DNA of 64,000 nt from a bacterium. Its GTDB lineage: Bacteria > Patescibacteriota > Patescibacteriia > Patescibacteriales > GWC2-42-12. The stretch lies in contig JAUSEG010000011.1 in the NCBI GenBank assembly GCA_030650415.1, positions 1,687 to 65,686 of the forward strand. The letters run 5' to 3'. The notes beneath the pieces were generated by a model. That model was not told where the DNA came from and made no database searches. It worked only from the letters and a program-made list of their open reading frames with translations. Of this stretch, positions 425 through 45,350 are shown piece after piece. The stretch's first letter is position 1. Each line of letters starts with the position of its first letter. Both the position numbers and the translations under genes were made by a program.

Positions 425-580
425 TTAAAAAATTTCTAATTTCTAATTTTCAATTTTTAAACAATGACTAAATGTCTTAATTTTCAATTATTTCTTAAAA
501 AATTCAACTTAATTGAAAATTAATTCATTAAAAATTGTTTGAAAATTGGTAATTGAAAATTGAAAATTGTTACATAACTA
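425..580. repeat. AT-rich MITE-like element of the 'aattgaaaatt / attcattaaaaattgtttgaaaattg' family, copy 1.
   Basis: Near-identical blocks (ctaattttcaattt(t/c)taaacaatg..., aattaattcattaaaaattgtttgaaaattg) recur at 29880-30056 and 43975-44093. The arms are inverted. Confidence 0.7.
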
Positions 581-11550: not shown

Positions 11551-11559
11551 ATTACCATG

Positions 11560-11686
11560 ATTGTCATTGCGAACAACTACCACTCCACTGTCATTCCCGC
11601 GCAGGCGGGAATCCATTTCCACTAAAATTTCTGGATTCCCGCCTGCGCGGGAATGACAAACAAAATTATGCTCCTCGCAATGACAT
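11560..11686. repeat. Compound nested-palindrome repeat, family B (tgtcattcccgcgcaggcgggaatcc ... ggattcccgcctgcgcgggaatgaca), flanked by tgtcattgcga/ctcgcaatgaca.
   Basis: Perfect inverted arms are read directly. The same module is at 32281, 36195, 39297 and 42093. Confidence 0.85.
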
Positions 11687-17976: not shown

Positions 17977-18074
17977 TGTCATGCTGGAGGGAGCGCCAGC
18001 GACCGATAGCATCTCATTTTAAAGCGCCACACCACAAGATTCTATCGCTCCGCTTCGCTACGCTCCAGAATGAC
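17977..18074. repeat. Nested-palindrome repeat, family A copy.
   Basis: tgtcatgctggagggagcgccagcgaccgatagcatctca...agattctatcgctcc...gctccagaatgaca. Confidence 0.85.
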
Positions 18075-18076
18075 AA

Positions 18077-18539: not shown

Positions 18540-18632
18540 ATTATAACATTTTGATAACGAATCATGAATTATGAATCATGGGGCTTGCTAATATTATTCT
18601 CTGCATTTTCCATAATTCATGATTCATTATTC
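18540..18632. repeat. MITE-like inverted repeat, family C2 (gaatcatgaattatgaatcatgg ... ccataattcatgattcattattc).
   Basis: A second copy with the same internal 'ttttccataattcat' lies at 22795-22897. The same motif is inserted in the PfkB CDS. Confidence 0.75.
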
Positions 18633-20185
18633 ATAATTCCTTTTCTGGCTTTAGGCGTTACCCAAAAACCCATATACTTTCCTAACATCATTCTGGTCTG
18701 CGCTTCCAGCCCCGGGATAGCGCCAAAAATTATAATGCTGATAGGTAAAATCAGCCATTGCAGTACCATGATAATGCTTTTTATAAAACTGTATTGGCTG
18801 GGGCGCTTAGGCAGGAGTATGGTTGAAATAATCGCTGAAAAAATCATGCCGACCATGGCGACAATCATCAAAGTCCGAGAGACCGCCGGCAAGTTGCTTG
18901 ATAAAACCGTAACATTAAAATTATTCCCGCCCAAAATCATCGGCAGCCAGCCGACGATGCCGATTATTAAAGAATTTGTCGCCCAAGAATGAAAACCGTA
19001 AAATTGAACTAAAATTTTATTTATCATCTTGCCAATCGGCAGGGTTTTTCTTTCCTTGATGGTATTAAACATTAAATACGGCAAATTTTCCACTCCCCAG
19101 CCCCAGCGTCTCTGCTGTTTGTATAGATTTTTTATGGTTTGCCAGACGGTTAAATCCATGCAAACGTCCATGGAAACCGGAAAATATAGCGGTTCAACCC
19201 GATAGTCTCCCCGATAGTAGCAATAACAATGCCAGAAAATGCGCGAATCCTCGCTCACCATATTGGTGGACCAAAAATCAATATCCAGAAGCGCCCGCCA
19301 AGTCATTGAATGCGAAGAATAGGTCGCCAACTTTTCCTGCCTGATCTGCTGCATCATCTGCCAAAAAGTATTTGAAGAAGCGGCTACTCGCGAAAAAAAC
19401 GGCGCTTGCCAAATATTATTGTGATAGATGGGAATCGGCTGATAGCTTGCCCGATAAGGATTCTTAACCGTTAAAAACTTATGAGTCAAACAGAAAAAAT
19501 ATCCGGAGATTACCACCGTATCCATGTCAAAAACGCTGATTAAAATTTTATCGTAATTATAATTAAACTTATCAATAATTTGAATTTTCACCTGCTTCGC
19601 CGCCCAAGTTTGATTTGCCCCCTTGCCTTTTAGCTCGCCGGCAAGATTATCCGGATGAACGGTAACTAAAAAATGTTTGAATTTAAAACCAAATTCCCGC
19701 TCAATCACTCTGGCTCTGGCCTTGGCTTCGGCTCCGGCCCGCTCTTCAATGGCTAAAACCACAATCATTTTATCTGCCGGATAGCCGTCCCTTATTAATC
19801 CCTCAAAACTTGGCCTGATTACTTCCAGGCTTTCATCGTAGGTTGGAAAAATAACCAGCTGAACAACTTCCGACCAATTTAAATTACTCCCAACGTTCAT
19901 CGGCAGTTTTTCGCATTTCTCGCGCCAATCAATTTTAACATTCTTCTTAATACCTATATAAGCGGCAAAAAGATGGATGCCTAAATAAATAACCAGGAGC
20001 AGCCAATAAACATCAAAACCAATAATAAAATATGCCGCCCAAACCGGCTTAAGCCAGGAAAATAAAACTAAAATAATCAGCGTAGCCCAAGAAAAACCAC
20101 CTGGTAAAATTTCCAACAAACGGTAAAGCCTTCTGTCTTTTTTTATAACCAGGTCGGAGGCTTTGCTGATTTTCAGGTAATTCAT
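18617..20185 (-). CDS. Membrane-embedded processive GT2 beta-glycosyltransferase (cellulose/chitin-synthase-like).
   Basis: QQRRWGWG (the Q(Q/R)xRW motif), D,D,D motifs, and multiple TM helices on both sides of the catalytic domain. Confidence 0.7.
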   Translation of the reverse strand: MNYLKISKASDLVIKKDRRLYRLLEILPGGFSWATLIILVLFSWLKPVWAAYFIIGFDVYWLLLVIYLGIHLFAAYIGIKKNVKIDWREKCEKLPMNVGSNLNWSEVVQLVIFPTYDESLEVIRPSFEGLIRDGYPADKMIVVLAIEERAGAEAKARARVIEREFGFKFKHFLVTVHPDNLAGELKGKGANQTWAAKQVKIQIIDKFNYNYDKILISVFDMDTVVISGYFFCLTHKFLTVKNPYRASYQPIPIYHNNIWQAPFFSRVAASSNTFWQMMQQIRQEKLATYSSHSMTWRALLDIDFWSTNMVSEDSRIFWHCYCYYRGDYRVEPLYFPVSMDVCMDLTVWQTIKNLYKQQRRWGWGVENLPYLMFNTIKERKTLPIGKMINKILVQFYGFHSWATNSLIIGIVGWLPMILGGNNFNVTVLSSNLPAVSRTLMIVAMVGMIFSAIISTILLPKRPSQYSFIKSIIMVLQWLILPISIIIFGAIPGLEAQTRMMLGKYMGFWVTPKARKGIMNNES

Positions 20186-22794: not shown

Positions 22795-22897
22795 TAAATG
22801 CAAATGAATTATGAATAATGAATTATGAATAATGGAATTTTACTGATTAATTTTTGCGTTTTCCATAATTCATAATTCATTATTCCTAATTCATCTA
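22795..22897. repeat. MITE-like inverted repeat, family C2 copy.
   Basis: gaattatgaataatgaattatgaataatgg...ttttccataattcataattcattattcctaattc. Confidence 0.75.
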
Positions 22898-25709: not shown

Positions 25710-26219
25710 AATTCGGTGAACTCATTACAAGTCTTAATATTTTATTATTCACTAAAACAAAATTTCTTTTCTACGATTCTCGCCCCGAGCTTGTCGAGGG
25801 GTAGAATTTCTATAAATTGCCGGGGGAAAATTATATTAAACAAGATAAATTAACTTCTGTCTATATTTAATTAATATTGCTTTACGCGGTCAATTTTTAC
25901 TCTGATTTATTTTATGAAAACATATTAACATATTTTTTTTTATAAGTCAAGGGGTATTATAATAATATCTATAATTAGCCATATATATTAAACAATCTTA
26001 ATTTCTAAATAAATTTGCAGCCATAAAAAATCTTAAAATAATTATCTAATATTAACACTAATTTTTATATAGGTTGACATTTATACTGACTTATGATACG
26101 GTATTTTATCGTTCATTAAAAAATTTATGTCTGTGAAACTGCCACTAGACGACTATAAGTAGCCGCCTGATTGCAGTTTCGCAGTATAAACAAACCAAAA
26201 ACAAAAAACAAGTAAAACT

Positions 26220-26426
26220 ATGAGAAAATCATTCCTTTGGCTCTTCGGCTGCATCGCTGGGCTTATCCTCGCAATCGTGCTGTCGTTCAAAGCCAGCACC
26301 ATCAAAATCGTGCCGGTGCAAATTACCAACTCGCAAACCGAGACATCGGTAACTCTGGCGCCTGTCGCGCCGGAGTCCAATCGGGTGACGGTTAACTTCA
26401 GCGGTGTCCAACCGGTCATCAAGTAA
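26220..26426 (+). CDS. Small (68 aa) signal-peptide/TM protein in the GC-rich island.
   Basis: MRKSFLWLFGCIAGLILAIVLS hydrophobic N-terminus. GC-rich codons and an A/C-rich SD-less leader. Confidence 0.4.
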   Translation: MRKSFLWLFGCIAGLILAIVLSFKASTIKIVPVQITNSQTETSVTLAPVAPESNRVTVNFSGVQPVIK

Positions 26427-26463
26427 TGTCGGTCAACAAAAACAAAAAAACAGCAGAAACAAA

Positions 26464-27636
26464 ATGAAAAAAACAATGTCGGTAATAGCACTGGCGCTTC
26501 TCGCAGCCAGTGTAATGTTCGCTCAAGACCTTCCACCCGTCTCCGGTGGCGACAATTCAGGCGGAGGCGGATCGGGCGGTGGCGGTGGAAGCTCTGTGCC
26601 GCCAACCTTCACGGGGCCTGACAAGGTGCCGTTGGCTTCGCCAAAGGTGCTACAGGCCTACGCCCTGACCCTGGTCGGAACGATAGGAGTGCAAGTGTAC
26701 GGAAATTCGGTCTCCGGCGACAGTTATCGCTGGGTGGACTACCCGTACGAGGATGCCGACCCCGATCGCATGGCCAGCATAGCCAGTTCGATCGAGCTGA
26801 AATTCAGCGCAACCACGGATGATCAACTGACTTCATGGGTGTCGTATAACAGTCGAATGTTCACCCTGACAGACCCGGATGAAAATGAAGTCACAACCGC
26901 ATTTGGCTTGTTCAACGGAGGCAAAAACTTCAAGCTTGAATACTTCAAAGATGCGTGGCGGGTGCCTACCAACGCCTACGCTGTTGAACTTGAGGTTGGC
27001 CAAGTTCCTTGGGTAGTCCCTGGGATGAGAAATGCCTACATCACGACTCGAGATGAAAAAGGCAACTACACCGGATACTACGATTTCCGGCAACAGCAGG
27101 GCGACTACTGGCTGGATCGCGGGGTTATATTCCTTACCGAGCAACTGACCTCTCGCCGCGGAGACCTAACCACGATTTTGGAAAACGGTTCCAAGGTCGT
27201 CTATGACATCACAAGCGGTTGGCGAAAATACTCGCCGACGATCAAGGGTAGCGGCTTCAAGCCGACGATCAAAGGGATTCGGACCGTGCCTGACAATACG
27301 ATTGATATTGTTTATCGGGAAACAGACGAAATCGTCAGAGTCGCCTACACTGGGGATTATCACGGCTCAAACACGTTTCAAAATGTGTTTGTGGAATTCC
27401 CTGGAGAACTGAAGCGGTATCCGGCCAAAGTTTTTGTCATCGACACGAGACTCTTGGCGTTAAACCCTGACGCCGAATGGCTGGAATTCAATCCGTATGT
27501 TGAGCCGGTATGGTTCAGGATGAAAGTCGGCCAAGCCGTGCTCATCCGCTTCGAGTACCAAATCGATCCGGAGCCGCTGGACAATGGTGGCGGCGGTAAG
27601 GGCGCCAAAGTCGCGCCAGTCAAGCTTGAGGAGTAA
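26464..27636 (+). CDS. Secreted hypothetical protein (signal peptide, Gly/Ser linker, ~330 aa domain of unknown function). The start was set at MKKTMSV.
   Basis: MKKTMSVIALALLAASVMFAQD signal peptide, a GGGGSGGGGGSS linker, GC ~55% against ~37% for the flanks, and a terminator at 27669-27706. Confidence 0.55.
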   Translation: MKKTMSVIALALLAASVMFAQDLPPVSGGDNSGGGGSGGGGGSSVPPTFTGPDKVPLASPKVLQAYALTLVGTIGVQVYGNSVSGDSYRWVDYPYEDADPDRMASIASSIELKFSATTDDQLTSWVSYNSRMFTLTDPDENEVTTAFGLFNGGKNFKLEYFKDAWRVPTNAYAVELEVGQVPWVVPGMRNAYITTRDEKGNYTGYYDFRQQQGDYWLDRGVIFLTEQLTSRRGDLTTILENGSKVVYDITSGWRKYSPTIKGSGFKPTIKGIRTVPDNTIDIVYRETDEIVRVAYTGDYHGSNTFQNVFVEFPGELKRYPAKVFVIDTRLLALNPDAEWLEFNPYVEPVWFRMKVGQAVLIRFEYQIDPEPLDNGGGGKGAKVAPVKLEE

Positions 27637-27668
27637 CCCCAAGCAAATTTTGCACCTTCAAAAACAAC

Positions 27669-27706
27669 AGCGCCAGCTTCACCTCGAAGCCGGCGCTCTT
27701 TTTTTA
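27669..27706 (+). terminator. Rho-independent terminator of the island transcript.
   Basis: agcgccagcttc-acctc-gaagccggcgct followed by ctttttttt. Confidence 0.6.
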
Positions 27707-27722
27707 CTTAAAATTTTCCTTC

Positions 27723-27861
27723 TGTCATTGCGAGAAGTAAAATTCATTCGTCATTCTGGAGGGAGCGTCAGCGACCGATAGAATCTCATAATATAACATG
27801 AGATGCTATCGCTCCACTTCGTTCCGCTCCAGCATGACAAAAAAAGTCGCTCGCAATGACA
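27723..27861. repeat. Compound nested-palindrome repeat (outer tgtcattgcgag/ctcgcaatgaca, inner family A).
   Basis: Three concentric inverted-repeat pairs are read directly. The element is nearly identical to 31113-31259. Confidence 0.85.
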
Positions 27862-27871
27862 ATCATTATAT

Positions 27872-28816
27872 TTAATCTCCAAAATACTCCACCTCTTCTT
27901 CTAAATTTATTTTGTATTTATTCTTAACTTTTTTCTTAACTAAATTTATCAAGCTTAAAACATCTCTAACGCTGGCTCGACCGGTATTAATTATAAAATT
28001 AGCATGCTGGTCGCTGATTTTTGCCTCTCCCCTAGTCCGGCCTTTAAGGCCGAGCTGATCAATTAAATAAGCCGCCCCGATTTTACCGCCCCTGAATAAG
28101 CCTTTTTTTTCTAAATCCAGAGCCAGCTCACGGTTTTCTTTCAATATTTTTTTATATTCCAAGTTTTTAAAAATACAGCCGGCGCTCGGTTCTTTAGGGT
28201 TGGTTCGCGCCCGATTGGTTATATTCACTTTGGCTAAATTCTTAATTTCTGTTGCCTCGCCCGGGGTTAATTTTAAATTAACGCTAACAATCAGCAGATT
28301 TCTATTTTCCTTAAAAATGGAATGACGATAGCTAAAACCGCAGGCCTGATTATTTAATTTCACCAGTTCACCTTTAGCTTGATCATAAGCCTCGGCTTCG
28401 GCTACCTGCCCGGAAATATCACTGCCATAAGCCCCGGCATTGCCCCTAACCGCGCCGCCCAGGCTGCCGGGTATGCCGGCCGCCCACTCCAAGCCGATTA
28501 AACCCAAGCCATAAGTAACTTCGGCAAGTTTAGCTAAACCAATGCCGGCCCAAGCCGATATAATATTTTCGTTAACAGTATAATCTTCACCGGAAATCTT
28601 TATTACCAAGCCTTTTATTTTTTTCTTAATAATTAAAACATTGCTGCCGCCGGCTAAAAATAATAACGGCAATTTTTTATTTTTTGCCCAATTTATCGCC
28701 TCGATCAGTTCTTTTCTATTTTTTACCGCCACAAAAAACTCCGCTCGACCGCCGATTTTAAAAGTCGTCAAAGACGTTAAATTGTAATTTTTTTTAATAA
28801 TTTTTTCTATGGGCAT
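27872..28816 (-). CDS. murB: UDP-N-acetylenolpyruvoylglucosamine reductase.
   Basis: FKIGGRAEFFVAVKNRKELIEAINWAKNKKLPLLFLAGGSNVLI (FAD-binding). The start was moved to MPIEK to exclude the repeat-encoded extension. Confidence 0.85.
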   Translation of the reverse strand: MPIEKIIKKNYNLTSLTTFKIGGRAEFFVAVKNRKELIEAINWAKNKKLPLLFLAGGSNVLIIKKKIKGLVIKISGEDYTVNENIISAWAGIGLAKLAEVTYGLGLIGLEWAAGIPGSLGGAVRGNAGAYGSDISGQVAEAEAYDQAKGELVKLNNQACGFSYRHSIFKENRNLLIVSVNLKLTPGEATEIKNLAKVNITNRARTNPKEPSAGCIFKNLEYKKILKENRELALDLEKKGLFRGGKIGAAYLIDQLGLKGRTRGEAKISDQHANFIINTGRASVRDVLSLINLVKKKVKNKYKINLEEEVEYFGD

Positions 28817-28825
28817 ATTAATTAA

Positions 28826-29016
28826 GCTGTCATTGCGAGCCGCCCTTGTAATCAAGGCGGCGAAAAAATTGTCATTGCGGGCTTGACCCGCAATCCAGGT
28901 TTCAATTTCACAAATGACTTATATAATTATTAACCTTATAAACAAAACTATTTAGTTTTAAATCTGGATTCCGGCCTGCCTACCGGACAGGCAGGCTCGG
29001 AGGCCGGAATGACAAT
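28826..29016. repeat. Two adjacent palindromic modules (tgtcattgcgagccgcc.../ttgtcattgcgggcttgacccgcaatcc and ggattccggcc...ggccggaatgaca).
   Basis: Read directly. They share arms with the elements at 40672-40905 and 45165-45350. Confidence 0.75.
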
Positions 29017-29043: not shown

Positions 29044-29925
29044 CTACGGCAATAAAATTGAAATAACCGATAAAGAGGCTAAATCAATCTGCGGCTCGAT
29101 CGTGGCGCTTTGCCAAACCTCATTATTTTCTTTTATAACTTTCGTCACCCGGCCGATAACTAAGCCGCGCGGTATGTTCTGCTCCAGCCCGGAAGTCGCC
29201 ACTAAGTCGCCGGCCTTAATATTTTCGGTTTGGGGTATAAATTCCATTTTAATGGTTAGCCCCAACTCGCCGGCGGCTATGCCGGAGGTTTTTTCCTCGC
29301 CTAAGATAGCGGCCGCTAATTTGCAATTTTTATTGGTTACTAAATATATTTCAGAAAGATTATCTTTAACATTAACGATTTTACCGATAATAACGCCTTG
29401 GCTCGTCTCGCCCGAGCTTACGAAGCTGACTACCGCTAGACCGGCGAACAGGCCGTCTCTTAAGCCCTTATCAATTAATACCGACCGGCTGTCTGCCGGC
29501 TCGCCTTCGAGTTCGCCTCGAGAAATTATATTAGCCATTAAGTAACGCTTGCCGCTTTTTTCCAAAAAGTTTAATTGTTTCCTTAAGGCCAAGTTTTCTT
29601 CTTTTAAAAATTTCAACTCAACATTCTCGGCCGTTAAGCGATTTATCATAACGCCCGCTTCCTTTAACTTAGCCGCTAAATCAACCTTGGCGGTTTGATC
29701 AGAATAGGTCCGATTTAAGCCCGAACTCAAAGAATAAAATATTTTAAATACGGGATTGAGTCTCTTGGCTAAAAATGATTCCACCGGATTTAACAACTTA
29801 GCATAATGCAAAACCAACAGCAGCACAAGAGCTACTACAATATATACATATTTTTTCAAATTTATTCTCAACATACTATCTAATTTAATTGCCACATACC
29901 TAATTTTCAATTTACTAATTTTCAA
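29044..29925 (-). CDS. mreC: Rod shape-determining protein MreC.
   Basis: N-terminal TM, coiled-coil and C-terminal beta domain (GDLVATSGLEQNIPRGLVIGRV). It is immediately downstream of mreB. Confidence 0.8.
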   Translation of the reverse strand: MKISKLKIRYVAIKLDSMLRINLKKYVYIVVALVLLLVLHYAKLLNPVESFLAKRLNPVFKIFYSLSSGLNRTYSDQTAKVDLAAKLKEAGVMINRLTAENVELKFLKEENLALRKQLNFLEKSGKRYLMANIISRGELEGEPADSRSVLIDKGLRDGLFAGLAVVSFVSSGETSQGVIIGKIVNVKDNLSEIYLVTNKNCKLAAAILGEEKTSGIAAGELGLTIKMEFIPQTENIKAGDLVATSGLEQNIPRGLVIGRVTKVIKENNEVWQSATIEPQIDLASLSVISILLP

Positions 29926-30056
29926 TTTTCAAACAATGCTCTAATTTTTAATGATCAATTATCTCTACTTCGCCAAGCCTACGGAGGATAAGCAATTTTA
30001 AAATTTAATCATTGAAAATTCATTGAAAATTGATAATTGAAAATTAAAAATTATTT
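29880..30056. repeat. AT-rich MITE-like element, family C copy 2.
   Basis: aattttcaatttactaattttcaattttcaaacaatg...cattgaaaattcattgaaaattgataattgaaaatt. Confidence 0.7.
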
Positions 30057-31100: not shown

Positions 31101-31112
31101 TATATTTATTAT

Positions 31113-31259
31113 GTCATTGCGGGCTATTATTCTTTCTGTCATTCTGGAGGGAGCGCCAGCGACCGATAGAATCTCGCTGTAAACACTCTAACCATGAGAT
31201 GCTATCGCTTCACTTCGTTTCGCTCCAGCATGACAAGAAATTAGTCGCTCGCAATGACA
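31113..31259. repeat. Compound nested-palindrome repeat (family A inside tgtcattgcggg/ctcgcaatgaca).
   Basis: Read directly. Confidence 0.85.
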
Positions 31260-32280: not shown

Positions 32281-32500
32281 TTTCTCTTTGTCATTCCCGC
32301 GCAGGCGGGAATCCAGGGGTTAGCAGTAAAAATATACTGCTTTCTCTAAACCCTACACAATATAAAAATTTTAAATTAGCGCACGCTCAGTAAAAATATT
32401 CCTACTTCTCCCTCCTGGATTCCCGACAGCCTTCGGCTTCGGGAATGACAGACTAAAAAAAGACCGCTTCGCTTCATTCCTCGCAATGACAAATTATCTT
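32281..32500. repeat. Composite family B element (tgtcattcccgcgcaggcgggaatccaggggttagcagtaaaaat...ctccctcctggattcccg...gggaatgaca...ctcgcaatgaca).
   Basis: Closely related to 42093-42320. Confidence 0.8.
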
Positions 32501-35721: not shown

Positions 35722-36184
35722 TGAATGCCTTATAAAATTTTCCGTTTATTTTAAGATCGGCGATAATCGCTTGCGGTGTTGAGATATGTTTAATATAGCT
35801 TAAACTTTCTTCCGGTGATAGAAATTTTATGCATTTAACTGCTATTTCAGTATCCGACTTTCCATCCCATTTATTAATCTTAAATGTACCATCCAATTTT
35901 TTATCCCAGGTAGCGTCAACGATTTTCCATTCTCCGTCAACGTTAATTTCAATATAAGTGTGAGAGGATTCGTCATCATGCGACACGCCTTGAATTTCCT
36001 TTGGCAAATTGAGATCGCTCCATCTGAATGTGCATAAGCGATATATTACGTCATATCCTCCCCGCTTTAATATCTTAAATAACTTTTCTGCTTTTCCAGT
36101 GCAACACTCATCCGGCTCTTCTAAAGAAAGAGGGATTCTGTACGGAATATCTCTAACTTTTTCGAATTCTTTAATGATACTCAT
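35684..36184 (-). CDS. Transglutaminase-like (Cys-His-Asp) domain protein.
   Basis: Cys in CTGKAEKLFKIL, His in SHTYIEINVDGEWKIVDATWD and an Asp downstream. Confidence 0.45.
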   Translation of the reverse strand: MSIIKEFEKVRDIPYRIPLSLEEPDECCTGKAEKLFKILKRGGYDVIYRLCTFRWSDLNLPKEIQGVSHDDESSHTYIEINVDGEWKIVDATWDKKLDGTFKINKWDGKSDTEIAVKCIKFLSPEESLSYIKHISTPQAIIADLKINGKFYKAFNEWLETKRKLYG

Positions 36185-36194
36185 ATTTCTACCG

Positions 36195-36238
36195 ATCCCT
36201 CCTGGATTCCCGCCTTCGCGGGAATGACAATAAAAGTA
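36195..36238. repeat. Single family B palindromic module (ctcctggattcccgccttcgcgggaatgaca).
   Basis: Read directly. Confidence 0.7.
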
Positions 36239-36252
36239 GTTATTTTCTTACT

Positions 36253-39200
36253 TTATGCCCCATGGCACTTCTTATATTTTTTGCCAGACCCGCACGGGCA
36301 GGGATCATTCCGCCCAATTTTCTGGCCTTCGGCATCTTTGGCTTTTTCATGAACTAAATCTACCGGTTGATTTTTTTTATTTTCACTACTCTTAAAAGCG
36401 GAAAATGATTCTGTGCTCTTATCCATAGTCTTGGCCGGGGCGATGTAATTCTGCGGCCGCGTCTTCAATGTTGGCATGGCGAAATTACCGAAGTCCGCCA
36501 CTTTAAAAATGGAATAAGCCACTTGCTTTTGAATTAAATTATTTAATTCATTATATAAAATATAAGCTTCTTTTTTGTATTCTATGAGCGGATCTCTCTG
36601 GCCATAGCCGCGGAGCCCGATGCCGGCGCGCATATGATCCATGGCTTCCAAGTGCTCCATCCACAGCATGTCAAATGACCTTATAAGAACCGCTTTTTCA
36701 ACTTGGCGCCAATCGATTCCGGCCTCTCCGGCCAGTTTAATAATTTTTTCATAGTTGGTTTTTACCAAAGCCATGAGGTGGTCGCAAATTTTCGTCCTAA
36801 CTCTTACTTTTTCCAGCTTATCGCCGTCGCCGGCCAATCCCGTAAGCTCATCTTTTAATTTCGCTTCCACCGGCAAAATGGTTGACATAACCTGATAAAT
36901 TTCTTTAATATTCCAATCCGCGCTTGCATCGGCGGCCGTATGAAAAATTACCGCCTGCTCGATTTCGTTTTCAATCATTTCTAAAATTATTTCTGTCATC
37001 CTGGAGGGAGCGGAGCGACCGATAGGATCTCCCTGTTTTGCCTCTGAACTATGGGATTCTATCGCCTTCGGCTCCAGAATGACATTACCACTTTCCGCCA
37101 ACTCCAATATCTCTCGCCTCTTCCGATAGGTTGTCTCGCGATGCTTATTTATTACATCATCATATTCAACCAAGTGTTTTCTAGTATCAAAATTATTGCC
37201 TTCAACTTTTTTCTGCGCCGATTCGATGGAACGAGAAACCATGCCATTCTCTATTGGCAGGTCTTCCGGCACTCTTAAGGTGGTCATTAAGTTCTTCATC
37301 CGGTCGCCGCCAAAAATTCTCATCAAATCATCTTCCATGGAAACATAGAATTGGCTTGATCCCGGATCGCCCTGGCGGCCGGCGCGGCCTCGAAGCTGAT
37401 TATCAATGCGCCTGGCCTCGTGCCTTTCCGTGCCAATAATATGCAAACCGCCAGAGGCCAGCACTTTTTTATATTCTTCTTGCCAGATTTTATATTCCGG
37501 GTTTTCCTCTTTTCCGTCTTCCATCAATTTGCTTGGCGGTACTCCGCCGAGCATAATATCCACACCTCTTCCGGCCATATTGGTGGCGATAGTCACGGCG
37601 CCCAAACGCCCGGCCTGAGAAATAATTTTGGCTTCCTTTTCATGGTGTTTGGCATTTAAAACCTGCGGTATAATCCCTTCTCGTTCGAGCATCTCGCCCA
37701 AGACTTCATTTCTTTCAATGGAGATGGTGCCGACTAAGATCGGCTGGCCGGTAGCGTGCCGGCGCTTCACTTCTTCAATCACGGCTTTAAACTTTCCATT
37801 TTCGGTCCGATAAATTAAATCATTAAGATCTTTTCTAACCATCGTCCGATTAGTCGGTATCACCACGGTTTCCAGTTTATAAATTTTGGAAAATTCCTCG
37901 GCTTCGGTTATGGCCGTGCCGGTCATGCCCGAAAGTTTCTTATACATTCTGAAATAATTTTGAAAAGTCACGGTGGCTAAGGTCTGTGATTCGCGTTGAA
38001 CTTTAACTTTTTCCTTAGCTTCAATCGCCTGGTGCAAACCCTCGCTATAGCGCCGGCCATGCATTAAGCGGCCGGTAAATTCATCAACAATAATTACTTC
38101 GTTATCTTTCACCACGTAGTCCCGATCGCGCTTAAATAAAACTCGCGCTTTTAGAGCTTGCTCAATATGGTGCACTTCGGAAATTCCGCCCGAGGTATAA
38201 ATATTATCCACGCCCATTAATTTTTCCATTTTAGCGATACCGGCTTCGGATAAAGTGGCGGCGCGCATTTTTTCATCAACATTATAATCGCCCTGCCCTG
38301 AGTCATCCGAAGGGTCATTTTCGGTTAAACGTTCAACCAAGTCGGAAAATTTAAAATATTTATCCGTCGATTCTTCGGCTGGAGAACTGATTATAAGCGG
38401 CGTTCTGGCTTCATCAATTAAAATTGAATCGACTTCATCGACGATAGCGTAATATAAATCCCTTTGCGCCATTGAATTTAAATCCGGCACCATGTTATCC
38501 CTTAAATAATCAAAGCCGAATTCATTATTCGTGCCATAAAGAATATCGCAAGCATAGGCCTCTTTACGTGGCACTTCAACTAATTTGCCTTCGTTTTGGT
38601 CATTGAAAATTTGATCATTGGGATTTGTTTGAAAATTGTCTGGCTTCGCCAGATCTGGCGTAGCCAGAGAAATTGGAAATTGAAAATTTTTTCCCGAATT
38701 ATAAATATAGGCTTTTTCATGTGTTATACATCCCACGCTCAATCCAAGAAAACTGTAAATCTTCCCCATCCATTCGGCGTCGCGCTTGGCCAGGTAATCG
38801 TTAACCGTAATTACATGCACGCCCTTTTTAGGCAGAGCGTTTAAATAAGCGGGCAAAGTAGCCACTAAAGTTTTACCTTCGCCGGTTCTCATTTCCGAAA
38901 TTTGCCCGCGATGCAGCGCCAGGCCTCCGAGCAACTGCGCGTCATAATGCCTCTGGCCTAGGGTTCGCTTGGCCGCTTCTCTAACCACGGCGAAAGCTTC
39001 CGGCAGAATTTCTTCCAGCCTTTTTTCTATGTCATCCTGGAGCGAAGCGTCAGCGGAGCGATAGGATCTCATTTTTTCATTACCCGCGCTGAGCAAAACC
39101 GAAGCGTCAGTCTCCACCTCCAATCTTTTTCTAAACTCGGCCGTCATATTCCGCAACTCATCATCGCTCATCACTTCAAACTTTTTTTCCAAAGCATTAA

Positions 39201-39276
39201 TCTCCGCCACAATCGGCCTTAAGCCTTTTATGATCTTTTCATTCGGATCACCAAAAATTTTATCGATTAAACTCAT
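36253..39276 (-). CDS. secA: Preprotein translocase ATPase SecA (1007 aa) with three in-frame repeat-derived insertions.
   Basis: DEAD-like motor motifs, the C-terminal zinc site [14 protein letters not shown], and the N-terminus [14 protein letters not shown]. Confidence 0.9.
36994..37084. repeat. Family A palindromic element inserted in frame in secA. It encodes [31 protein letters not shown].
   Basis: tgtcatcctggagggagcggagcgaccgataggatctcc...gattctatcgcc...ctccagaatgaca; translation checked by hand. Confidence 0.85.
38601..38690. repeat. 'ttgaaaatt + ggcttcgccagatctggcgtagc' module inserted in frame in secA. It encodes [20 protein letters not shown]....
   Basis: The same 'ggcttcgccagatctcgcgtagcgatgac' module occurs at 40830, 42240 and 45250 (intergenic). 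Translation checked by hand. Confidence 0.75.
39030..39072. repeat. Half family A element inserted in frame near the secA N-terminus. It encodes [16 protein letters not shown].
   Basis: atgtcatcctggagcgaagcgtcagcggagcgataggatctcat; translation checked by hand. Confidence 0.75.
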
Positions 39277-39296
39277 AAATTATTTATTGTCATTGC

Positions 39297-39415
39297 GGGT
39301 AATTAAATAAAGCAATCTTCCCCATTCTGTCATTCCCGCGCAGGCGGGAATCTAGAAAACGTATTTATACCTCGCACCCCTAGATTCCCGCTTTCGCGGG
39401 AATGACAAAATAAAC
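39297..39415. repeat. Family B compound element upstream of secA.
   Basis: ttgtcattgcgggtaatt...tgtcattcccgcgcaggcgggaatctag...tagattcccgctttcgcgggaatgaca. Confidence 0.8.
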
Positions 39416-40671: not shown

Positions 40672-40905
40672 TGTCATTGCGAGCCGCCCTCTTTTTTGTC
40701 ATTCCGGCCTTTAAGCCGAAGGCTCGCCCCGTTAAATCCCTACGGGACGCAAAGCGTATTTAACGGGGCGAGCCGGAATCCAGGTTTTGGCGCTAAGAAC
40801 AAATTTCTGGATTGTCGTGGCTTCGCCAGATCTCGCGTAGCGATGACGAGGTCAAGCCCGCAATGACAAACAAAAATTAAACTCCTCGCAATGACGTTAG
40901 GTTAT
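40672..40905. repeat. Composite palindromic repeat region (tgtcattgcgagccgcc, tgtcattccggcc...ggccggaatcc, ggcttcgccagatctcgcgtagcgatgac, cgcaatgaca x2).
   Basis: Read directly. The modules are shared with 28826-29016, 42230-42320 and 45165-45350. Confidence 0.8.
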
Positions 40906-42083
40906 TAAAATATCTTATTCCAAATATTGCTAAAAAATCCGCCAAATTTTGACACATCCCTAAGCGTCACCACTAAAACCAAAATCATAAGCAATATAAA
41001 ACCGATATTATGTATGGCATTTTCCACTTCTCTCTTAACCGGCCCTCGCTTAATTTTTTCAATAATCAAGAATAAAAATCTTCCTCCGTCCAAGGCGGGA
41101 AAAGGAAAAAAATTAATCACGGCCAGATTGATGGATAAAAGCGCCGTGAATTGCATGAGATAAACGAAGCCCATCCGCGCTACCTGCCCGGTGATAGTGG
41201 CAATACCAACTGGGCCGGCCAAATCAGCGGTCACGCCCTGGCCGAAAATCAAGCCCTTGATTAATTCATAAAATGCTACAATAATCGCCCAAATTAATAT
41301 AAAGGTGGTTTTAAAACCTTCCCAAATCGCTAAGTACCAAGGATAGCGGACGATACCGGTTTCGCTGATGGCCACGCCGACTCCGCCCTTGCCGATTTCC
41401 GGCATTAAAACGGGCGTGATGGTTTTATCAATCAGCTCTTGCCCGCGCTTGATTTTATAAACCAAGCCTTGCCCGGTCTTAGAATCCACATAATTTTGTA
41501 ATTCCGCGAAACTTGAAAATTTATTATTATCAATGCTAAAAATCGTATCCCCAATTTTTAAATCGGCCTTTTCCGCCGGCGAGCTCTTTATAACCTGAAC
41601 GATTTGAATTTTCCGATCGCTGACTAAAGCGCGGGCGTCTAAACCGTTATCCAGGCTCTGCGGCAAGCCGACCATGAAACCAGCGATTATTAAAATCATG
41701 GCCAAAACAATATTCATAATTACGCCAGCGGAGAGCATCACGCCTCTTTGCCAAACCGGACGCGAAGCAAAACTATCCTTTTCCTCGACCAGCCCTGAGC
41801 TTGCCGAAGGGCCGTTCTCGCCCTTAATTTTAACGAAACCGCCTAAAGGCAGCCAATTTAGAGAATAAACCGTGCCCGGGCAATCGGTTACTTCCTTGCC
41901 GCCAAAAATCTTCTTCCATTGGCCCTGGTCATTTTTATAAAAACCGAAAGCCCGAGGCGGAAAGCCCAGTCCAAACTCTTCGGCCTTAACGCCGAATTTC
42001 CTGGCCGTCATAAAATGCCCCCACTCATGCGCGAGCACTAAAACCGACAGAACCGCGAGAAAAATAATTATAGTTAAAAGCAT
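40905..42083 (-). CDS. rseP: RseP/site-2 zinc metalloprotease with a PDZ domain.
   Basis: HEWGHFMTARKFGV (HExxH), a PDZ region and a C-terminal LDGG motif. The start was moved to MLLTIIIF (the longer ORF start is repeat-encoded: ...DSRLRGND...). Confidence 0.8.
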   Translation of the reverse strand: MLLTIIIFLAVLSVLVLAHEWGHFMTARKFGVKAEEFGLGFPPRAFGFYKNDQGQWKKIFGGKEVTDCPGTVYSLNWLPLGGFVKIKGENGPSASSGLVEEKDSFASRPVWQRGVMLSAGVIMNIVLAMILIIAGFMVGLPQSLDNGLDARALVSDRKIQIVQVIKSSPAEKADLKIGDTIFSIDNNKFSSFAELQNYVDSKTGQGLVYKIKRGQELIDKTITPVLMPEIGKGGVGVAISETGIVRYPWYLAIWEGFKTTFILIWAIIVAFYELIKGLIFGQGVTADLAGPVGIATITGQVARMGFVYLMQFTALLSINLAVINFFPFPALDGGRFLFLIIEKIKRGPVKREVENAIHNIGFILLMILVLVVTLRDVSKFGGFFSNIWNKIF

Positions 42084-42092
42084 AAATTTTTG

Positions 42093-42320
42093 TTTGTCAT
42101 TCCCGCGCAGGCGGGAATCCAGGGGTGAGCAGTAAAAATGCATTCCACCACCCTAAACTCTATATGATATTAATATTTTATAAAAGCGTGCGAACATTAA
42201 TAATGGTCCTGCTACTCCCTCCTGGATTCTCATGGCTTCGCCAGATCTCGCGTAGCGATGACCGATAGCCTTCGGCTTCGGGAATGACAAGAAGAATTAG
42301 GGGTTCTCGCAATGACAGTT
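42093..42320. repeat. Composite family B element, near-duplicate of 32281-32500.
   Basis: tgtcattcccgcgcaggcgggaatccaggggtgagcagtaaaaatgc...ctccctcctggattc...ggcttcgccagatctcgcgtagcgatgac...gggaatgaca...ctcgcaatgaca. Confidence 0.8.
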
Positions 42321-42896: not shown

Positions 42897-44000
42897 TTAT
42901 TTTTTCTTTGGTATCTGCTTGACCGCCAGATAAATGATACTCGGATTTTTCGGATCAATCAAGAGCCTAAAGCCGGTTCGGCTCGAAGGCAGCTTATTCG
43001 AACTCCAATTTTTTCCGCCGTCTAAAGAGCGATAAAAAGTTGTATCAGTTACATAATAAATTTCGTTAGTATCAAAAGGATTAATGGCAATGGCATTTAT
43101 TTTAATCCGCGCTTTCTCAATAATCAGCTCGATTTTAGACCAAGTTTCGCCGTCGTCGGCTGACTTGATAAAACCGAAATTAGTGGCTAAAAAAACGGTT
43201 GGCTTTTCCGCTTTAACCATAGCCAAATCGCGAAAAGCTCCGGTGCCATCAAGAACTTTTAGCTTATCGCTTAAGTTTACCCAGCTCGAGCCGCCGTCGG
43301 TAGTGCGAAAAATTCCTTTGGCAAAAGCGCCGACAAATATAATCTTGGCGTTAACCGGGCTAATAACAATTCTATCGACTGGACTTTCAAACCTGTTTAA
43401 AGTTTGCCAACTCGCTCCACGATCCAGACTCTTGATAATTTCGCCGCGCGAAGTGCCGATAAAAACATTATTGTTATTGTTGCTATCGATAACTAAAGCG
43501 GTGATGATTACTGCCGGATCATTATCAAAATAGGTAATAGCCCAGGCGCGGCTGCAGTCCACTGATTTATAGACCTTATTGGCCGCCGTCGCGTAAATAA
43601 CGCACTTATTAGCCGGATCAACCGCGACATTGGTTACCGTCACTTTGCCCAAACCGGTGGCTATTTGCCAGCCCTCTCCGCCGTCGTAGCTGTAAAACAA
43701 GCCGTTGCCAATGCTCCCGGCGTAAATTGCTTTGCTATCCTCCGGATCCAGAGTTGAAGAAATTATGTCAACCGTGTTAAAACTTCTTTTCGAGCCGACT
43801 GTTTGAATTAAAACTTTCTGATTCCAAAGCGTTCCTTTATTAAGGGATTTATAAATTCCGCCATCGGTTAAGCTTGCGTCAGCGCCGGAACCGGTATTGA
43901 AACCGATGGTACAACCGGATAAAAAAAGCGCCGTTAATGGCAGCAACCATACTAATTTTAAAAATTTGGTTTTGGACATAAATTTAAATTTAATTTTCAA
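42897..44000 (-). CDS. Lipoprotein with a BNR/Asp-box beta-propeller (Ycf48/sortilin-like).
   Basis: Lipobox LFLSGC, and at least five S-x-D-x-G-x-(T/S)-W repeats (SYDGGEGW, SLDRGASW, TTDGGSSW, SADDGETW, SLDGGKNW). Confidence 0.6.
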   Translation of the reverse strand: MKIKFKFMSKTKFLKLVWLLPLTALFLSGCTIGFNTGSGADASLTDGGIYKSLNKGTLWNQKVLIQTVGSKRSFNTVDIISSTLDPEDSKAIYAGSIGNGLFYSYDGGEGWQIATGLGKVTVTNVAVDPANKCVIYATAANKVYKSVDCSRAWAITYFDNDPAVIITALVIDSNNNNNVFIGTSRGEIIKSLDRGASWQTLNRFESPVDRIVISPVNAKIIFVGAFAKGIFRTTDGGSSWVNLSDKLKVLDGTGAFRDLAMVKAEKPTVFLATNFGFIKSADDGETWSKIELIIEKARIKINAIAINPFDTNEIYYVTDTTFYRSLDGGKNWSSNKLPSSRTGFRLLIDPKNPSIIYLAVKQIPKKK

Positions 44001-44093
44001 TTTCTAATTTTCAATTTCTAAACAATGTCCTAATTTTCAATTTGTTAATTAAAGAATTAATTCATTAAAAATTGTTTGAAAATTGAGAATTGC
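43975..44093. repeat. AT-rich MITE-like element, family C copy 3.
   Basis: ctaattttcaatttctaaacaatgtcctaattttcaatt...aattaattcattaaaaattgtttgaaaattgagaattg. Confidence 0.7.
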
Positions 44094-45113
44094 CTATATG
44101 CTCGCCGCCACATTTTCCAGCGTTAACTTGGGATTTACATTATTCGCCAAATATTCTTTAGCTTGCTTTAGGGCGTCAATCAAACTTAGCAAAGATTTCA
44201 TGCTCAGTTTATTTTTTACCGCTGACAATTCTTCGTTAAAAGCTTCGTGCTGAATTAAATCGGCTAAATTTAATTCCATGAGCATTAAATCTCTGATTAG
44301 GTTTTGCCAAACATCAATAATTTTTCCGACTGACTTAACCGCTTCTTGCCCGCGCGCATTTTTCCCTAAAATATTTTCAATCGCTTTAAAGCGCTCGTTA
44401 ATATCCAGGTTCAATAATCCAACAAAGCCTTGAACATTGGCTTTGTAATTTTCATAATATTCTTTCTCCTCTAAAAACTTTAAAGCTATCGCCGGCCGGC
44501 CGGCCGACAAACGGGAAAAATTTTTAGCCTGGCTCCTCTGAGCGCCATGATTTTTAATCAAATCATCATAAATCATATCGCTTTTTACCGGCTGAAATCT
44601 TAAAATTTGGCTGCGCGAAACTATGGTCTTAGGCAGGGTTTCAAAATCCGTGACAGTTAAAATTATTACTACTTTAGCTTTGGGTTCTTCTAAAGTTTTT
44701 AGAAGCGCGTTAACCGCCCCCTCGCTTAGGGCTTCCGCGCCCTCGATAATGCCGATTTTATAAGAATTTAAAAACGAACTTAACCCCAGGCTTCTGATAA
44801 AATCTCTAACCTGCTCGATAGAAATATTTTTTTTATCAGCCTCTTTTTTTATTAAATAAATATCGCCATGAATTCCCTTAAGAGCCTCTCGACAGGCCGG
44901 ACACTTGCCGCAAGGCAGAGTTAATTGATCCTTGGCTTCGCAGACCAGGCTTTGCGCAAAAAAATTAGCGGCCGTGGCCTTGCCTAAACCGGCCGGACCG
45001 GTAAATATATAACTGCCGGAAATGTTTTTATTAATTAAGCTTTTAGCTAAAAATTCAAAAATATGGCTATTGCCAATTAATGGCCAGCTTAATTTGACTT
45101 TTGTTTCTTCCAT
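44094..45113 (-). CDS. holB: DNA polymerase III delta-prime subunit (clamp-loader AAA+).
   Basis: FTGPAGLGKATAANFFAQSLVC...CGKCPACREALKG (Walker A plus Zn module). The start was moved to MEETKVKL (the upstream 54 codons are repeat-encoded). Confidence 0.7.
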   Translation of the reverse strand: MEETKVKLSWPLIGNSHIFEFLAKSLINKNISGSYIFTGPAGLGKATAANFFAQSLVCEAKDQLTLPCGKCPACREALKGIHGDIYLIKKEADKKNISIEQVRDFIRSLGLSSFLNSYKIGIIEGAEALSEGAVNALLKTLEEPKAKVVIILTVTDFETLPKTIVSRSQILRFQPVKSDMIYDDLIKNHGAQRSQAKNFSRLSAGRPAIALKFLEEKEYYENYKANVQGFVGLLNLDINERFKAIENILGKNARGQEAVKSVGKIIDVWQNLIRDLMLMELNLADLIQHEAFNEELSAVKNKLSMKSLLSLIDALKQAKEYLANNVNPKLTLENVAASI

Positions 45114-45164: not shown

Positions 45165-45350
45165 ATTGTCATTGCGAGGAGCCCTGTAATCAGGACGACG
45201 CAACGGTCTTACTGTCCTGTCATTGCGGGCTCCGACCTCGTCATCGCTACGCGAGATCTGGCGAAGCCACGACAATCCAGAAACTTACGCTAAATATATA
45301 AATCTGGATTCCGGCTCGCCTTCGGCTTAAAGGCCGGAATGACAATACTT
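45165..45350. repeat. Composite palindromic repeat region.
   Basis: tgtcattgcgaggagccctgtaatcagg...cctgtcattgcgggctcc...catcgctacgcgagatctggcgaagcc...ggattccggc...gccggaatgaca. Confidence 0.8.

Follow-up and report, generated by a model that had tools for sequence, protein, structure and literature searches.

Described palindromic and miniature elements

To our knowledge, the colonization of housekeeping genes by palindromic repeats inserted in frame is regarded as near-unique to Rickettsia. REP, REPIN and BIME elements, another group of bacterial repeats, are reportedly mobilized by RAYT (TnpA-REP) transposases (Nunvar et al. 2010; Bertels and Rainey 2011). REPs are extragenic by definition and have the conserved 5' terminal motif GTAG.

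Rickettsia palindromic elements (RPE) are characterized in their descriptions as short palindromic repeats of ~100–150 bp (Ogata et al. 2000 Science 290:347 and Ogata et al. 2002 Genome Res 12:808, summarized in PMC10969869). ERIC/intragenic enterobacterial elements (Delihas 2007) and Coxiella QMITE1/2 (PMC5896051) represent MITEs with in-frame fusions. A literature search on palindromic elements, MITEs or in-frame insertions in CPR/Patescibacteria found nothing relevant.

The locus considered below belongs to a metagenome-assembled genome (MAG) of the Patescibacteria (CPR). The whole stretch of DNA that was analyzed, 64 kb, is referred to as the window. The secA gene located in it has very probably been colonized at three permissive loops by short, non-coding, hairpin-forming dispersed repeats.

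The secA gene and its three sites

The ORF carrying the repeats is, judging by its sequence, SecA, the protein translocase ATPase. Its Pfam domains are SecA_DEAD, PP_bind, P-loop_SecA, SecA_SW and SEC-C, the best similarity to SecA proteins of solved structure is strong (E 3e-234 vs E. coli SecA), and the translation contains the Walker A (MRTGEGKT), DEVD and C-terminal zinc-finger motifs. The gene order S30AE-secA-NUDIX-secDF is kept in orthologous loci. The initial annotation described an otherwise canonical SecA with three in-frame insertions derived from repeats, and this description is borne out in both parts: the ORF is intact with all its domains, and the three segments are present and match, at the DNA level, repeats dispersed between genes (Table 1).

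Alignment to the solved SecA proteins breaks at query positions 54–86, 184–235 and 732–855. In an AlphaFold model of moderate quality (mean pLDDT 69), values below 50 are found at 56–76, 196–229 and 731–757, between confidently modeled helices or strands. Together, these data place the three sites in predicted loops, in agreement with the surface loops proposed earlier. Two of the sites belong to NBD1: site 1 is located between its N-terminal helices, and site 2 occupies the tip of one of its hairpin loops. Site 3 separates the long scaffold helix from the helical wing domain.

The alignment with orthologues that had been suggested as a check shows the segments to be insertions relative to both the solved SecA proteins and the syntenic orthologue P0006, which is 88% identical outside the sites and shorter by 25, 31 and 12 aa at the three of them. 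Homologous peptides at the same positions in unrelated SecA proteins, which would have pointed to ancestral protein sequence, were not observed: none of the solved SecA proteins aligns across site 1 or site 3, and at site 2 only that of T. maritima (3DIN/3JUX/4YS0) has extra residues. This ~55-aa insertion is the protein's own; it lacks meaningful similarity to the window insert and is not known as repeat-derived, although it likewise occupies the NBD1 loop and is tolerated in a functional, crystallized SecA. The inserted peptides of the window are patchily distributed in one CPR clade, and closer relatives do not have them.

Table 1. Positions in the window of secA, its insertions and representative intergenic repeats
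Feature	Position	Strand	Remarks
secA ORF	36253..39276	minus	intact, 1007 aa, every SecA Pfam domain
Site 1, single family A arm (half-element)	39030..39072	minus	aa M69-D82
Extra segment adjoining site 1	39073..39110	minus	~aa 56-68, partly window-specific (ASVLLSAG)
Site 2, half of A/T-rich family C element	38602..38688	minus	aa N197-N225; family D3/D9
Nested 30-nt palindrome CTGGCTACGCCAGATCTGGCGAAGCCAGAC (sense strand) within site 2	38638..38667	minus	aa L204-D213
Site 3, full family A palindrome TGTCAT..ATGACA	36994..37084	minus	aa V732-T761, in frame
Family A, full intergenic reference copy, 38-nt-arm variant	27749..27839		nested inside TGTCATTGCGAG..CTCGCAATGACA palindrome
Family A, other full intergenic copies	2144-2231, 17977-18075, 31137-31235		between ORFs
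Family B, intergenic reference module containing GGCTTCGCCAGATCTCGCGTAGCG	40807..40847		family D7
Family B, other intergenic modules	42222-42262, 45233-45273		
Family C, intergenic reference palindrome	431..571		
Family C, other intergenic copies	29895-30055, 43984-44108		
TGTCAT-type palindromes (family D and one other)	39288..39413		directly upstream of secA start codon
Family D arm	36184-36235		just 3' of secA stop codon

Repeat families of the window

The termini of family A are the inverted repeats TGTCATyCTGGAG...CTCCAGrATGACA. The terminal 12-mer of this family occurs 11 times in the window (vs 0.08 expected from shuffles), and its intergenic copies are strong hairpins (z -4.9 to -8.4). 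Matches in the window also exceed expectation for family C (14 vs 0.97) and for the family B core (5 vs 0.00). One repeat is nested in another in site 2 of secA, site 1 of P0003 and tgt of L116, as well as among intergenic copies.

An Rfam scan of the window matched no family, which sets the repeats apart from the RNA families described so far. No consistent direct repeat, as expected of a target-site duplication, surrounds the five family A copies in the window. Ten selected ORFs of the window (plus-strand ORFs, the neighbors of secA and two repeat-associated ORFs) include no transposase, and no parent IS was identified for the repeats.

Insertions at the three sites

The site 3 element, ~90 nt long, belongs to the 37-nt-arm ('coding') variant of family A. 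It had been recognized as an in-frame copy of this family, and the four further full copies in the window, all intergenic, agree with that assignment. Its hairpin (-32.4 kcal/mol, z -2.1) keeps the terminal stem despite the coding position. An independently assembled genome, P0004 (GCA_964560005), carries this element in frame too, and at the identical codon. Both alleles lack the conserved LSS motif, which points to one ancestral or exchanged allele rather than to repeated independent insertion; gain, loss and allele exchange are therefore inseparable. Family A was also looked for in the 15-kb locus of P0004 outside secA, where none was found. An exhaustive phmmer search of 1.84 billion cluster representatives with the exact 33-aa site 3 peptide, a length that gives low power, returned no other protein at E<=0.001. 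That particular version of the peptide is thus rare; the result is uninformative on family A as a whole, since the coding copies in other genes differ in frame, orientation and loop sequence.

Site 1 was initially read as a half-element and does align as one family A arm. This arm is also present in four other assemblies (P0010, P0016, P0021 and P0003), with nucleotide identity of 37/39 to P0010 and 21/21 to P0003. An 11-nt direct repeat, CGAAGCGTCAG, delimits the extra segment adjoining site 1 (copies at 39043-39053 and 39100-39110); this segment has no second copy within the window.

Site 2 (38601-38690 in the initial annotation) was considered a single module. Its derivation from repeats stands, but the structure is a nested composite, in which half of a family C element is split by a family B-related palindrome. 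Similarity to one half of family C is 81% over 37 nt, and the family C part is common to the window and P0020 (~90% nucleotide identity). Relative to P0020, the nested palindrome is an exact insertion of 30 nt, or 10 codons, with no flanking direct repeat. Over its 24-nt core, the palindrome corresponds to three intergenic family B sites with 2 mismatches, and as a whole it forms a hairpin of -20.5 kcal/mol (z -6.2). This insert is known from one assembly alone (1 member, 1 contig). Specificity of site 2 to this genome applies to the 10-aa nested peptide only; the flanking NFQFPIS/NFQTN.. are common to several relatives.

Family A in other genes

A scan of metagenome DNA with the left arm of family A yielded 65 copies on 62 contigs, 16 of which are in frame and deep inside long ORFs. 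At least 10 unrelated housekeeping protein families contain the element in frame. The hosts identified by Pfam, in a scan that left out hosts L137 and L141, are P-type ATPase, LeuRS (at two different sites), ThrRS, TatD, UvrD, GT4 glycosyltransferase, topoisomerase I, TGT and a radical-SAM enzyme; according to BLASTP, a further host is another SecA, in which the element is inserted elsewhere. Coding copies occur in both orientations and in several reading frames. Half copies are present among the metagenome copies, and lengths inside ORFs, measured from GTCAT to ATGAC, are not uniformly multiples of 3.

The 37-nt-arm variant is located inside ORFs in 14/25 copies, vs 2/40 for the 38-nt variant (p=5.6e-6). 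An explanation of this enrichment by stop codons in the left arm was rejected: both variants have two open frames there. Repeat inserts of this kind explain part of the odd length variation and of the 'low-complexity' inserts in CPR core proteins, and in CPR MAGs they can mislead alignment, phylogeny and gene calling.

Turnover of inserts and conservation of arms

Across 44 SecA homologues, these three sites are either empty or occupied, in patchwork fashion, by differing repeat peptides. Among homologues of 65–91% identity, the contents of the sites do not follow the SecA tree, and pairs of 95–99.8% identity differ by whole inserts. The insertions had been thought to create lineage-specific SecA variants; they do vary among relatives, but not simply by lineage, the sites being hot spots that are used repeatedly and whose contents turn over. 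Of the 18 substitutions between P0038 and P0039, half fall within ~110 nt of the indel, and between P0020 and P0029 the coding flanks of the insert differ too. With dozens of alleles, SecA sites 1–3 represent a tractable system for studying both the tolerance of peptide insertions and the movement of elements.

The two secA orthologues with the site 3 element (77.8% identical) have no differences in the arms (0/75 nt), in contrast to 5/15 nt in the loop. All 25 third codon positions of the arms are conserved, whereas the other third positions are 58.5% identical between the orthologues. The tgt orthologues (78.4% identical) likewise have arms of ~100% identity. The flanks of the site 3 element are 80% and 77% identical, compared with the gene average of 77.8%. 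The contrast of arm and loop conservation, as well as the variant enriched in coding positions, provides testable handles on the mechanism.

Comparison with known systems

The CPR elements resemble RPE as short palindromic dispersed repeats of several families in a reduced genome, with no known transposase, and in their occurrence both in intergenic DNA and in frame in unrelated housekeeping genes, where a peptide is added without destroying the host protein. They differ from RPE in size (~66–130 nt) and in belonging to a different phylum (Patescibacteria/CPR). In the CPR elements, moreover, both orientations as well as several frames are read, half-elements and nested composites occur commonly, different families reuse the same host sites among relatives, and an arm variant differing by 1 nt is tied to coding copies. 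The initial annotation equated the insertions exactly with RPE. What remains of this is the dispersed palindromes and their in-frame position in unrelated genes, that is, a likeness of behavior and not membership. By analogy, the CPR elements appear to work like RPE; taxonomically they stand apart, the host not being Rickettsia. A second, unrelated reduced-genome lineage (CPR/Patescibacteria) thus displays RPE-like behavior, with several families and at apparently high frequency.

Like MITEs, the CPR elements are small, non-autonomous, bounded by inverted termini and mostly intergenic, being sometimes in frame inside ORFs. Unlike MITEs, the whole element is one long hairpin instead of two TIRs around a core, and its frequency in conserved essential genes is apparently much higher. 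Neither a consistent target-site duplication nor a parent IS was found. As in REP/REPIN elements, two inverted arms fold into a long hairpin whose loop varies, single arms are often left as remnants, the 5' end has a short conserved motif (TGTCAT here), and intergenic copies form mosaic or nested clusters. In contrast to REP/REPIN, the arms are longer (37–38 nt), and the elements are not exclusively extragenic, with 16/65 family A copies and the secA copies inside ORFs.

Origin and possible role of the insertions

The repeats probably constitute a superfamily, the modules of which begin with TGTCAT, end with ATGACA and fill intergenic DNA as nested mosaics. Their distribution suggests that the elements are or were mobile, via transposition or recombination-mediated copying. 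Insertions in an essential gene would survive only if they were in frame, stop-free and in a tolerant loop, so the visible inserts would be a filtered set of survivors. Preservation of the frame suggests that the inserted DNA is translated, presumably as ~14–31-aa surface loops, probably disordered. An existing element may serve as a landing pad for later insertions, and both hot spots and nesting would follow from this. The perfect conservation of the arms could result from homogenization against the genomic pool or from constraint on the hairpin or recognition sequence.

Two other kinds of insertion were considered and rejected. Inteins are far longer than the inserts (at least ~130 aa vs 10–31 aa), and the latter have no boundary Cys/Ser or His-Asn and no intein Pfam domain. 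Programmed bypass or RNA excision would make the strict preservation of frame and stop codons needless, the insert being removed before translation.

It is very improbable that the segments are an ancestral, fast-evolving SecA linker with coincidental, low-complexity likeness to repeats. The three sites are indeed loops of variable length in SecA generally, and the peptide NFQFPISNFQTN of site 2 has a simple composition, but this reading is already contradicted by DNA matches to intergenic copies far above shuffled expectation, by the same element within at least 10 unrelated proteins, by close syntenic orthologues devoid of the segments, and by conserved arms around a variable loop, which is not a protein-level pattern. 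An artefact of assembly or binning, with chimeric joins at repeats that happen to keep the frame, could be imagined for a MAG that is rich in repeats and whose 30-nt insert at site 2 comes from one assembly. Such an origin is extremely improbable, given that GCA_964560005 has the site 3 copy too, with codon and frame unchanged, that the site 1 arm recurs in four other assemblies, and that all three inserts are stop-free and in frame in a secA otherwise collinear with its orthologues. The earlier statement that the frame is genuinely preserved, and not a product of sequencing errors, is supported by the same recurrences.

Colonization of secA by mobile repeats is compatible with a further proposal, namely that the inserts are kept for a function, either as SecA surface loops (lineage-specific interaction or variation cassettes) or as mRNA/DNA hairpins within the gene. 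Arms conserved even at their 25 third codon positions, with replication in tgt, speak for such a role, as do the distinct coding-enriched variant and the terminal stem retained in the coding copy. On the other hand, the contents of the sites are freely replaced among close relatives, some of which have them empty, and this speaks against a protein function that is required; gene conversion from the genomic pool explains a conservation limited to the arms equally well, and the hairpin of the coding copy is weaker than those of intergenic copies. Selective retention is, on this evidence, distinctly unlikely. A hairpin could in principle affect translation pausing, mRNA stability or recombination. 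Somewhat better placed, though still doubtful, is the possibility that the patchiness arises mainly from homologous recombination, or allele exchange, between co-existing CPR strains, the repeats being its substrates and not the products of new transposition. Consistent with exchange are the discordance between site contents and the SecA tree, the clustering of substitutions near the indel in P0038/P0039, the differing coding flanks of P0020/P0029, and the derived allele, including the LSS loss, shared by the window and P0004. However, the site 3 flanks are no more similar than the gene average, and the clean 30-nt insert at site 2, as well as family A in many unrelated genes, requires de novo insertion at some time.

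An extension of the reading in which mobile repeats colonized secA could be offered as a speculation that is rather unlikely to hold in full: a CPR superfamily of REPIN/RPE-like elements with TGTCAT termini, including a gene-dwelling sub-lineage, in which arms are actively maintained, copies serve as landing pads and loops as exchangeable cassettes. If so, arms would be kept up by a mobilizing enzyme or by conversion even inside essential genes, and the permissive loops of SecA, aminoacyl-tRNA synthetases, topoisomerase I and other proteins would diversify protein surfaces between strains.

Repeat-Derived Segments of SecA

The initial annotation, according to which SecA carries three palindromic repeats as in-frame peptide segments, is essentially right: the protein of the window accommodates three repeat-derived peptide insertions in surface loops, composed of four repeat pieces. 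The quoted peptides are all present in the translation of the secA reading frame. Its product is a complete SecA with 5/5 SecA Pfam domains (Pfam scan), which matches E. coli SecA structures (E = 3e-234) and is identical to a database entry, the SecA of an uncultured bacterium MAG. The closest SecA relatives bear Patescibacteria, Parcubacteria or Falkowbacteria annotation, and the gene order S30AE - secA - NUDIX - secDF - mreB is common to the window and orthologous contigs.

Features of the secA locus and of the repeats of the window
Feature	Position	Strand	Remarks
secA ORF	36253..39276	minus	1007 aa
Site 1	39030-39072	minus	aa 69-82; single family A arm
Site 2	38602-38688	minus	aa 197-225; half of A/T-rich palindromic family C
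Near-perfect 30-nt palindrome splitting site 2	38638-38667	minus	core matches family B
Site 3	36994-37084	minus	aa 732-761; full family A copy
11-nt direct repeat CGAAGCGTCAG	39043-39053, 39100-39110		starts 57 nt apart, 46 nt between
Further full family A copies	2144, 17977, 27749, 31137		intergenic (4/4)
Family C copies matched by site 2	431-571, 29895-30055, 43984-44108		intergenic
Nested palindromic mosaics	11589-11685, 27723-27861, 28828-29014, 31112-31259, 32289-32491		intergenic
Nested palindromic mosaics	39288-39413, 40672-40900, 42095-42317, 45167-45344		intergenic

Derivation of the segments from palindromic repeats is confirmed by their intergenic matches. Family A has the layout TGTCATyCTGGAGGGAGCG.CAGCGACCGATAGnATCTC - loop - GAGATkCTATCGC..CGCTCCAGmATGACA, and its terminal 12-mer occurs 11 times in the window against 0.08 expected. 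The core of the site 2 palindrome (GGCTTCGCCAGATCTGGCGTAGCC), matching three intergenic family B modules at two mismatches, has 5 matches against 0.00 expected. Site 2 had been described as one repeat module; its repeat origin stands, but it is a nested composite that is genome-specific only in part. Hairpin folding is strong in the intergenic family A copies (z = -4.9 to -8.4) and weaker in the site 3 copy (z = -2.1), which retains a 12-13-bp terminal stem; the site 2 palindrome reaches -20.5 kcal/mol (z = -6.2). The 11-nt direct repeat near site 1, which encloses most of the arm and the window-specific ASVLLSAG codons, may be a scar of duplication or microhomology.

Location of the Insertion Points

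Alignment with E. coli SecA is interrupted at query positions 54-86, 184-235 and 732-855. When residues are numbered as in E. coli, with the Walker A lysine K108 as anchor, site 1 falls between about E55 and L60 (N-terminal helices of NBD1), site 2 between about I156 and A165 (NBD1 loop), and site 3 directly after about 674, where the long scaffold helix meets the helical wing domain. In an AlphaFold2 model of the window SecA (63 homologues as input, mean pLDDT 69), residues 56-76, 196-229 and 731-757 have pLDDT <50 and are all coil, flanked by the confident elements H38-51/H77-106, E189-192/E232-235 and H698-729/H759-779. The low-pLDDT coil predicted at each site agrees with the proposed surface-loop position. 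At exactly the site 2 position, crystallised T. maritima SecA carries about 55 inserted residues of unrelated sequence, so this loop is demonstrably permissive. That close relatives might lack insertions is borne out by the homologue P0006 (syntenic orthologue, 933 aa, 88% identity outside the sites), with 25, 31 and 12 aa fewer at sites 1, 2 and 3.

Turnover among SecA Relatives

The inserts had been regarded as creating lineage-specific SecA variants. Sites 1-3 are not one-off lineage markers but recurrent hot spots, and their contents turn over throughout an entire clade of the candidate phyla radiation (CPR, Patescibacteria). In a MAFFT alignment of the best 60 SecA homologues (65-81% overall identity) all three are hypervariable; in relatives they are empty or contain other recognisable repeat peptides, such as SPQPPLLKGE/PLNPPLSGG, VIARSDSDEAIS..EIASLPPVARNDK, PPLNLPLNKGE.., IPGLTRDPGVRDTEMDSGSEAGMTNKG and NDQIPNPKSQ... 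On an NJ tree computed from the alignment after masking, site contents form a patchwork discordant with phylogeny. At site 3, the window and P0004 (87% identity outside the sites) share the family A copy, which is missing from P0002, P0003, P0005 and P0006, although these are closer to the window than P0004; P0045 has a family A-like copy there in reversed orientation. The site 1 arm is found again in a separate clade (P0010, P0016, P0021), and in P0003 its 5' part is replaced by a CCCCCC..GGGGGG palindrome. The peptide LNPSASASLRRDGPL(E/Q)(V/G)GQD occupies site 1 of P0004 SecA (L081:6001-8994) and site 2 of P0009, and thus one repeat family occupies different SecA loops in different lineages.

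Comparison of site 2 between the window and P0020 reveals an exact 30-nt (10-codon) insertion, the family C segment being otherwise roughly 90% identical. Entire inserts distinguish even near-identical SecAs: the difference between P0020 and P0029 (97.9% identity) amounts to 22 aa at site 2 plus 36 aa at site 3, and that between P0033 and P0037 (95% identity) to 29 aa at site 3. P0038 and P0039, from sibling samples (L150:1501-4413, L151:448-3417), are distinguished by 18 substitutions in 2.9 kb and a 57-nt in-frame site 3 indel, a duplication of the AATCCCCCCAACCCCCTT motif. Nine of these substitutions cluster beside the indel, a pattern suggestive of a tract of recombination or conversion.

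Family A in Other Genes and Conservation of Its Arms

Family A colonises many other core genes. Its left arm was found in 65 copies on 62 metagenome contigs (contig scan), 16 of them in frame within ORFs of 171-1047 aa, a copy being counted if at least 40 codons from both ORF ends. Hosts identified by a Pfam scan, which left out L137 and L141, are heavy-metal P-type ATPase, LeuRS (two different sites), ThrRS, TatD, UvrD, GT4 glycosyltransferase (interdomain linker), topoisomerase I, TGT (queuine tRNA-ribosyltransferase) and a radical-SAM enzyme; BLASTP added one more host, a further SecA in which the element sits elsewhere. In-gene copies are full and half, in both orientations and several frames, and the GT4 copy, though read from the opposite strand, shares its 89-nt subfamily with the secA copy. 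The 37-nt left arm (4-nt spacer form) lies inside ORFs in 14/25 copies versus 2/40 for the 38-nt arm (Fisher p = 5.6e-6), a contrast persisting with orthologous duplicates collapsed (about 11/9 versus 2/35, rough hand recount). The secA copy has the 37-nt arm, the four intergenic window copies the 38-nt one.

The secA genes of the window and P0004 are 77.8% identical in nucleotides (58.5% at third codon positions), and the 150-nt flanks of site 3 are 80% and 77% identical. The element itself has 0 differences in 75 arm nt and 5 in the 15-nt loop; arms unchanged by chance would have P of about 7e-9 at the gene-wide rate, or about 1.5e-6 from third positions only. Likewise, the tgt copies have essentially identical arms in host genes of 78.4% identity (L116:2153-2240, L140:6309-6384), and just one of the two contigs has a further small palindrome (CCCCGGCTCAAGGCCGGGG) nested in the right arm. 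Selection on the peptide cannot account for the identity at synonymous positions, which leaves two explanations: the arms are homogenised against the genomic repeat pool, or the hairpin or recognition sequence is under constraint. The coding-associated variant and the arm-specific conservation point to element-level processes still acting.

Comparison with Known Elements

The architecture resembles that of REPINs: arms come in pairs or as singlet remnants, the 5' motif is conserved, and mosaics are formed. By definition REPs lie outside genes, whereas family A also occurs within ORFs.

Rickettsia palindromic elements (RPE) are described in the review PMC10969869 as several short palindromic repeat families, many in frame within unrelated metabolic genes, with insertions that the host fold is predicted to accommodate (Ogata 2000 and 2002, cited there). 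The parallel with RPE drawn in the initial annotation holds for behaviour; it is a likeness of behaviour, in a host of a different phylum. In-frame MITE fusions in enterobacteria and Coxiella are on record (PMC10969869, PMC5896051). Neither a consistent target-site duplication (five window family A copies, 30-nt site 2 insert) nor the transposase of a parent IS (ten selected window ORFs) was found, so MITE status is unconfirmed. Literature on CPR/Patescibacteria, incompletely covered, yielded nothing on in-frame palindromic repeats, which is absence of evidence only. Conceptually, the SecA inserts extend a known kind of phenomenon to a new lineage.

Repeat Landscape of the Window

Intergenic clusters of the window are nested mosaics of modules beginning with TGTCAT(T), of at least six types (for example TGTCATTGCGAG.., TGTCATTCCCGCG.., TGTCATTGCGGGC.., TGTCATkCTGGAG.. 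and TGTCATTCCGGCC..), organised like BIME/REPIN. Family A copies 27749 and 31137 are enclosed by another palindrome. Nesting, being both intergenic and intragenic, suggests that existing elements are preferred insertion targets; such a preference would account for repeated hits on the same protein loops. The 5' ends of ORF calls such as 10681-11622 and 40905-42143 run into palindromic mosaics.

In a PfkB-family sugar kinase (ORF 1155-2135, minus strand), NELRIMNHELRIM at 1679-1739 is coded by repeat family GAATTAAGAATTATGAATCATGAATTA..., with intergenic palindromic copies at 18553-18645 and 22803-22894; it is probably a second case in the window of a repeat inserted in frame.

An Rfam scan of the whole 64-kb window gave no family (tRNA, rRNA, riboswitch or other) at threshold, the 26000-28000 region included, and ORF 26404-27636 had no Pfam match. 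This plus-strand ORF (410 aa, GTG start) is overlapped by minus-strand ORFs. G+C is 0.47 at 26000-28000 versus 0.36-0.44 in all other 2-kb blocks, and GC skew, otherwise uniformly negative in the window, is about 0 there. Nearly all long ORFs of the window are on the minus strand.
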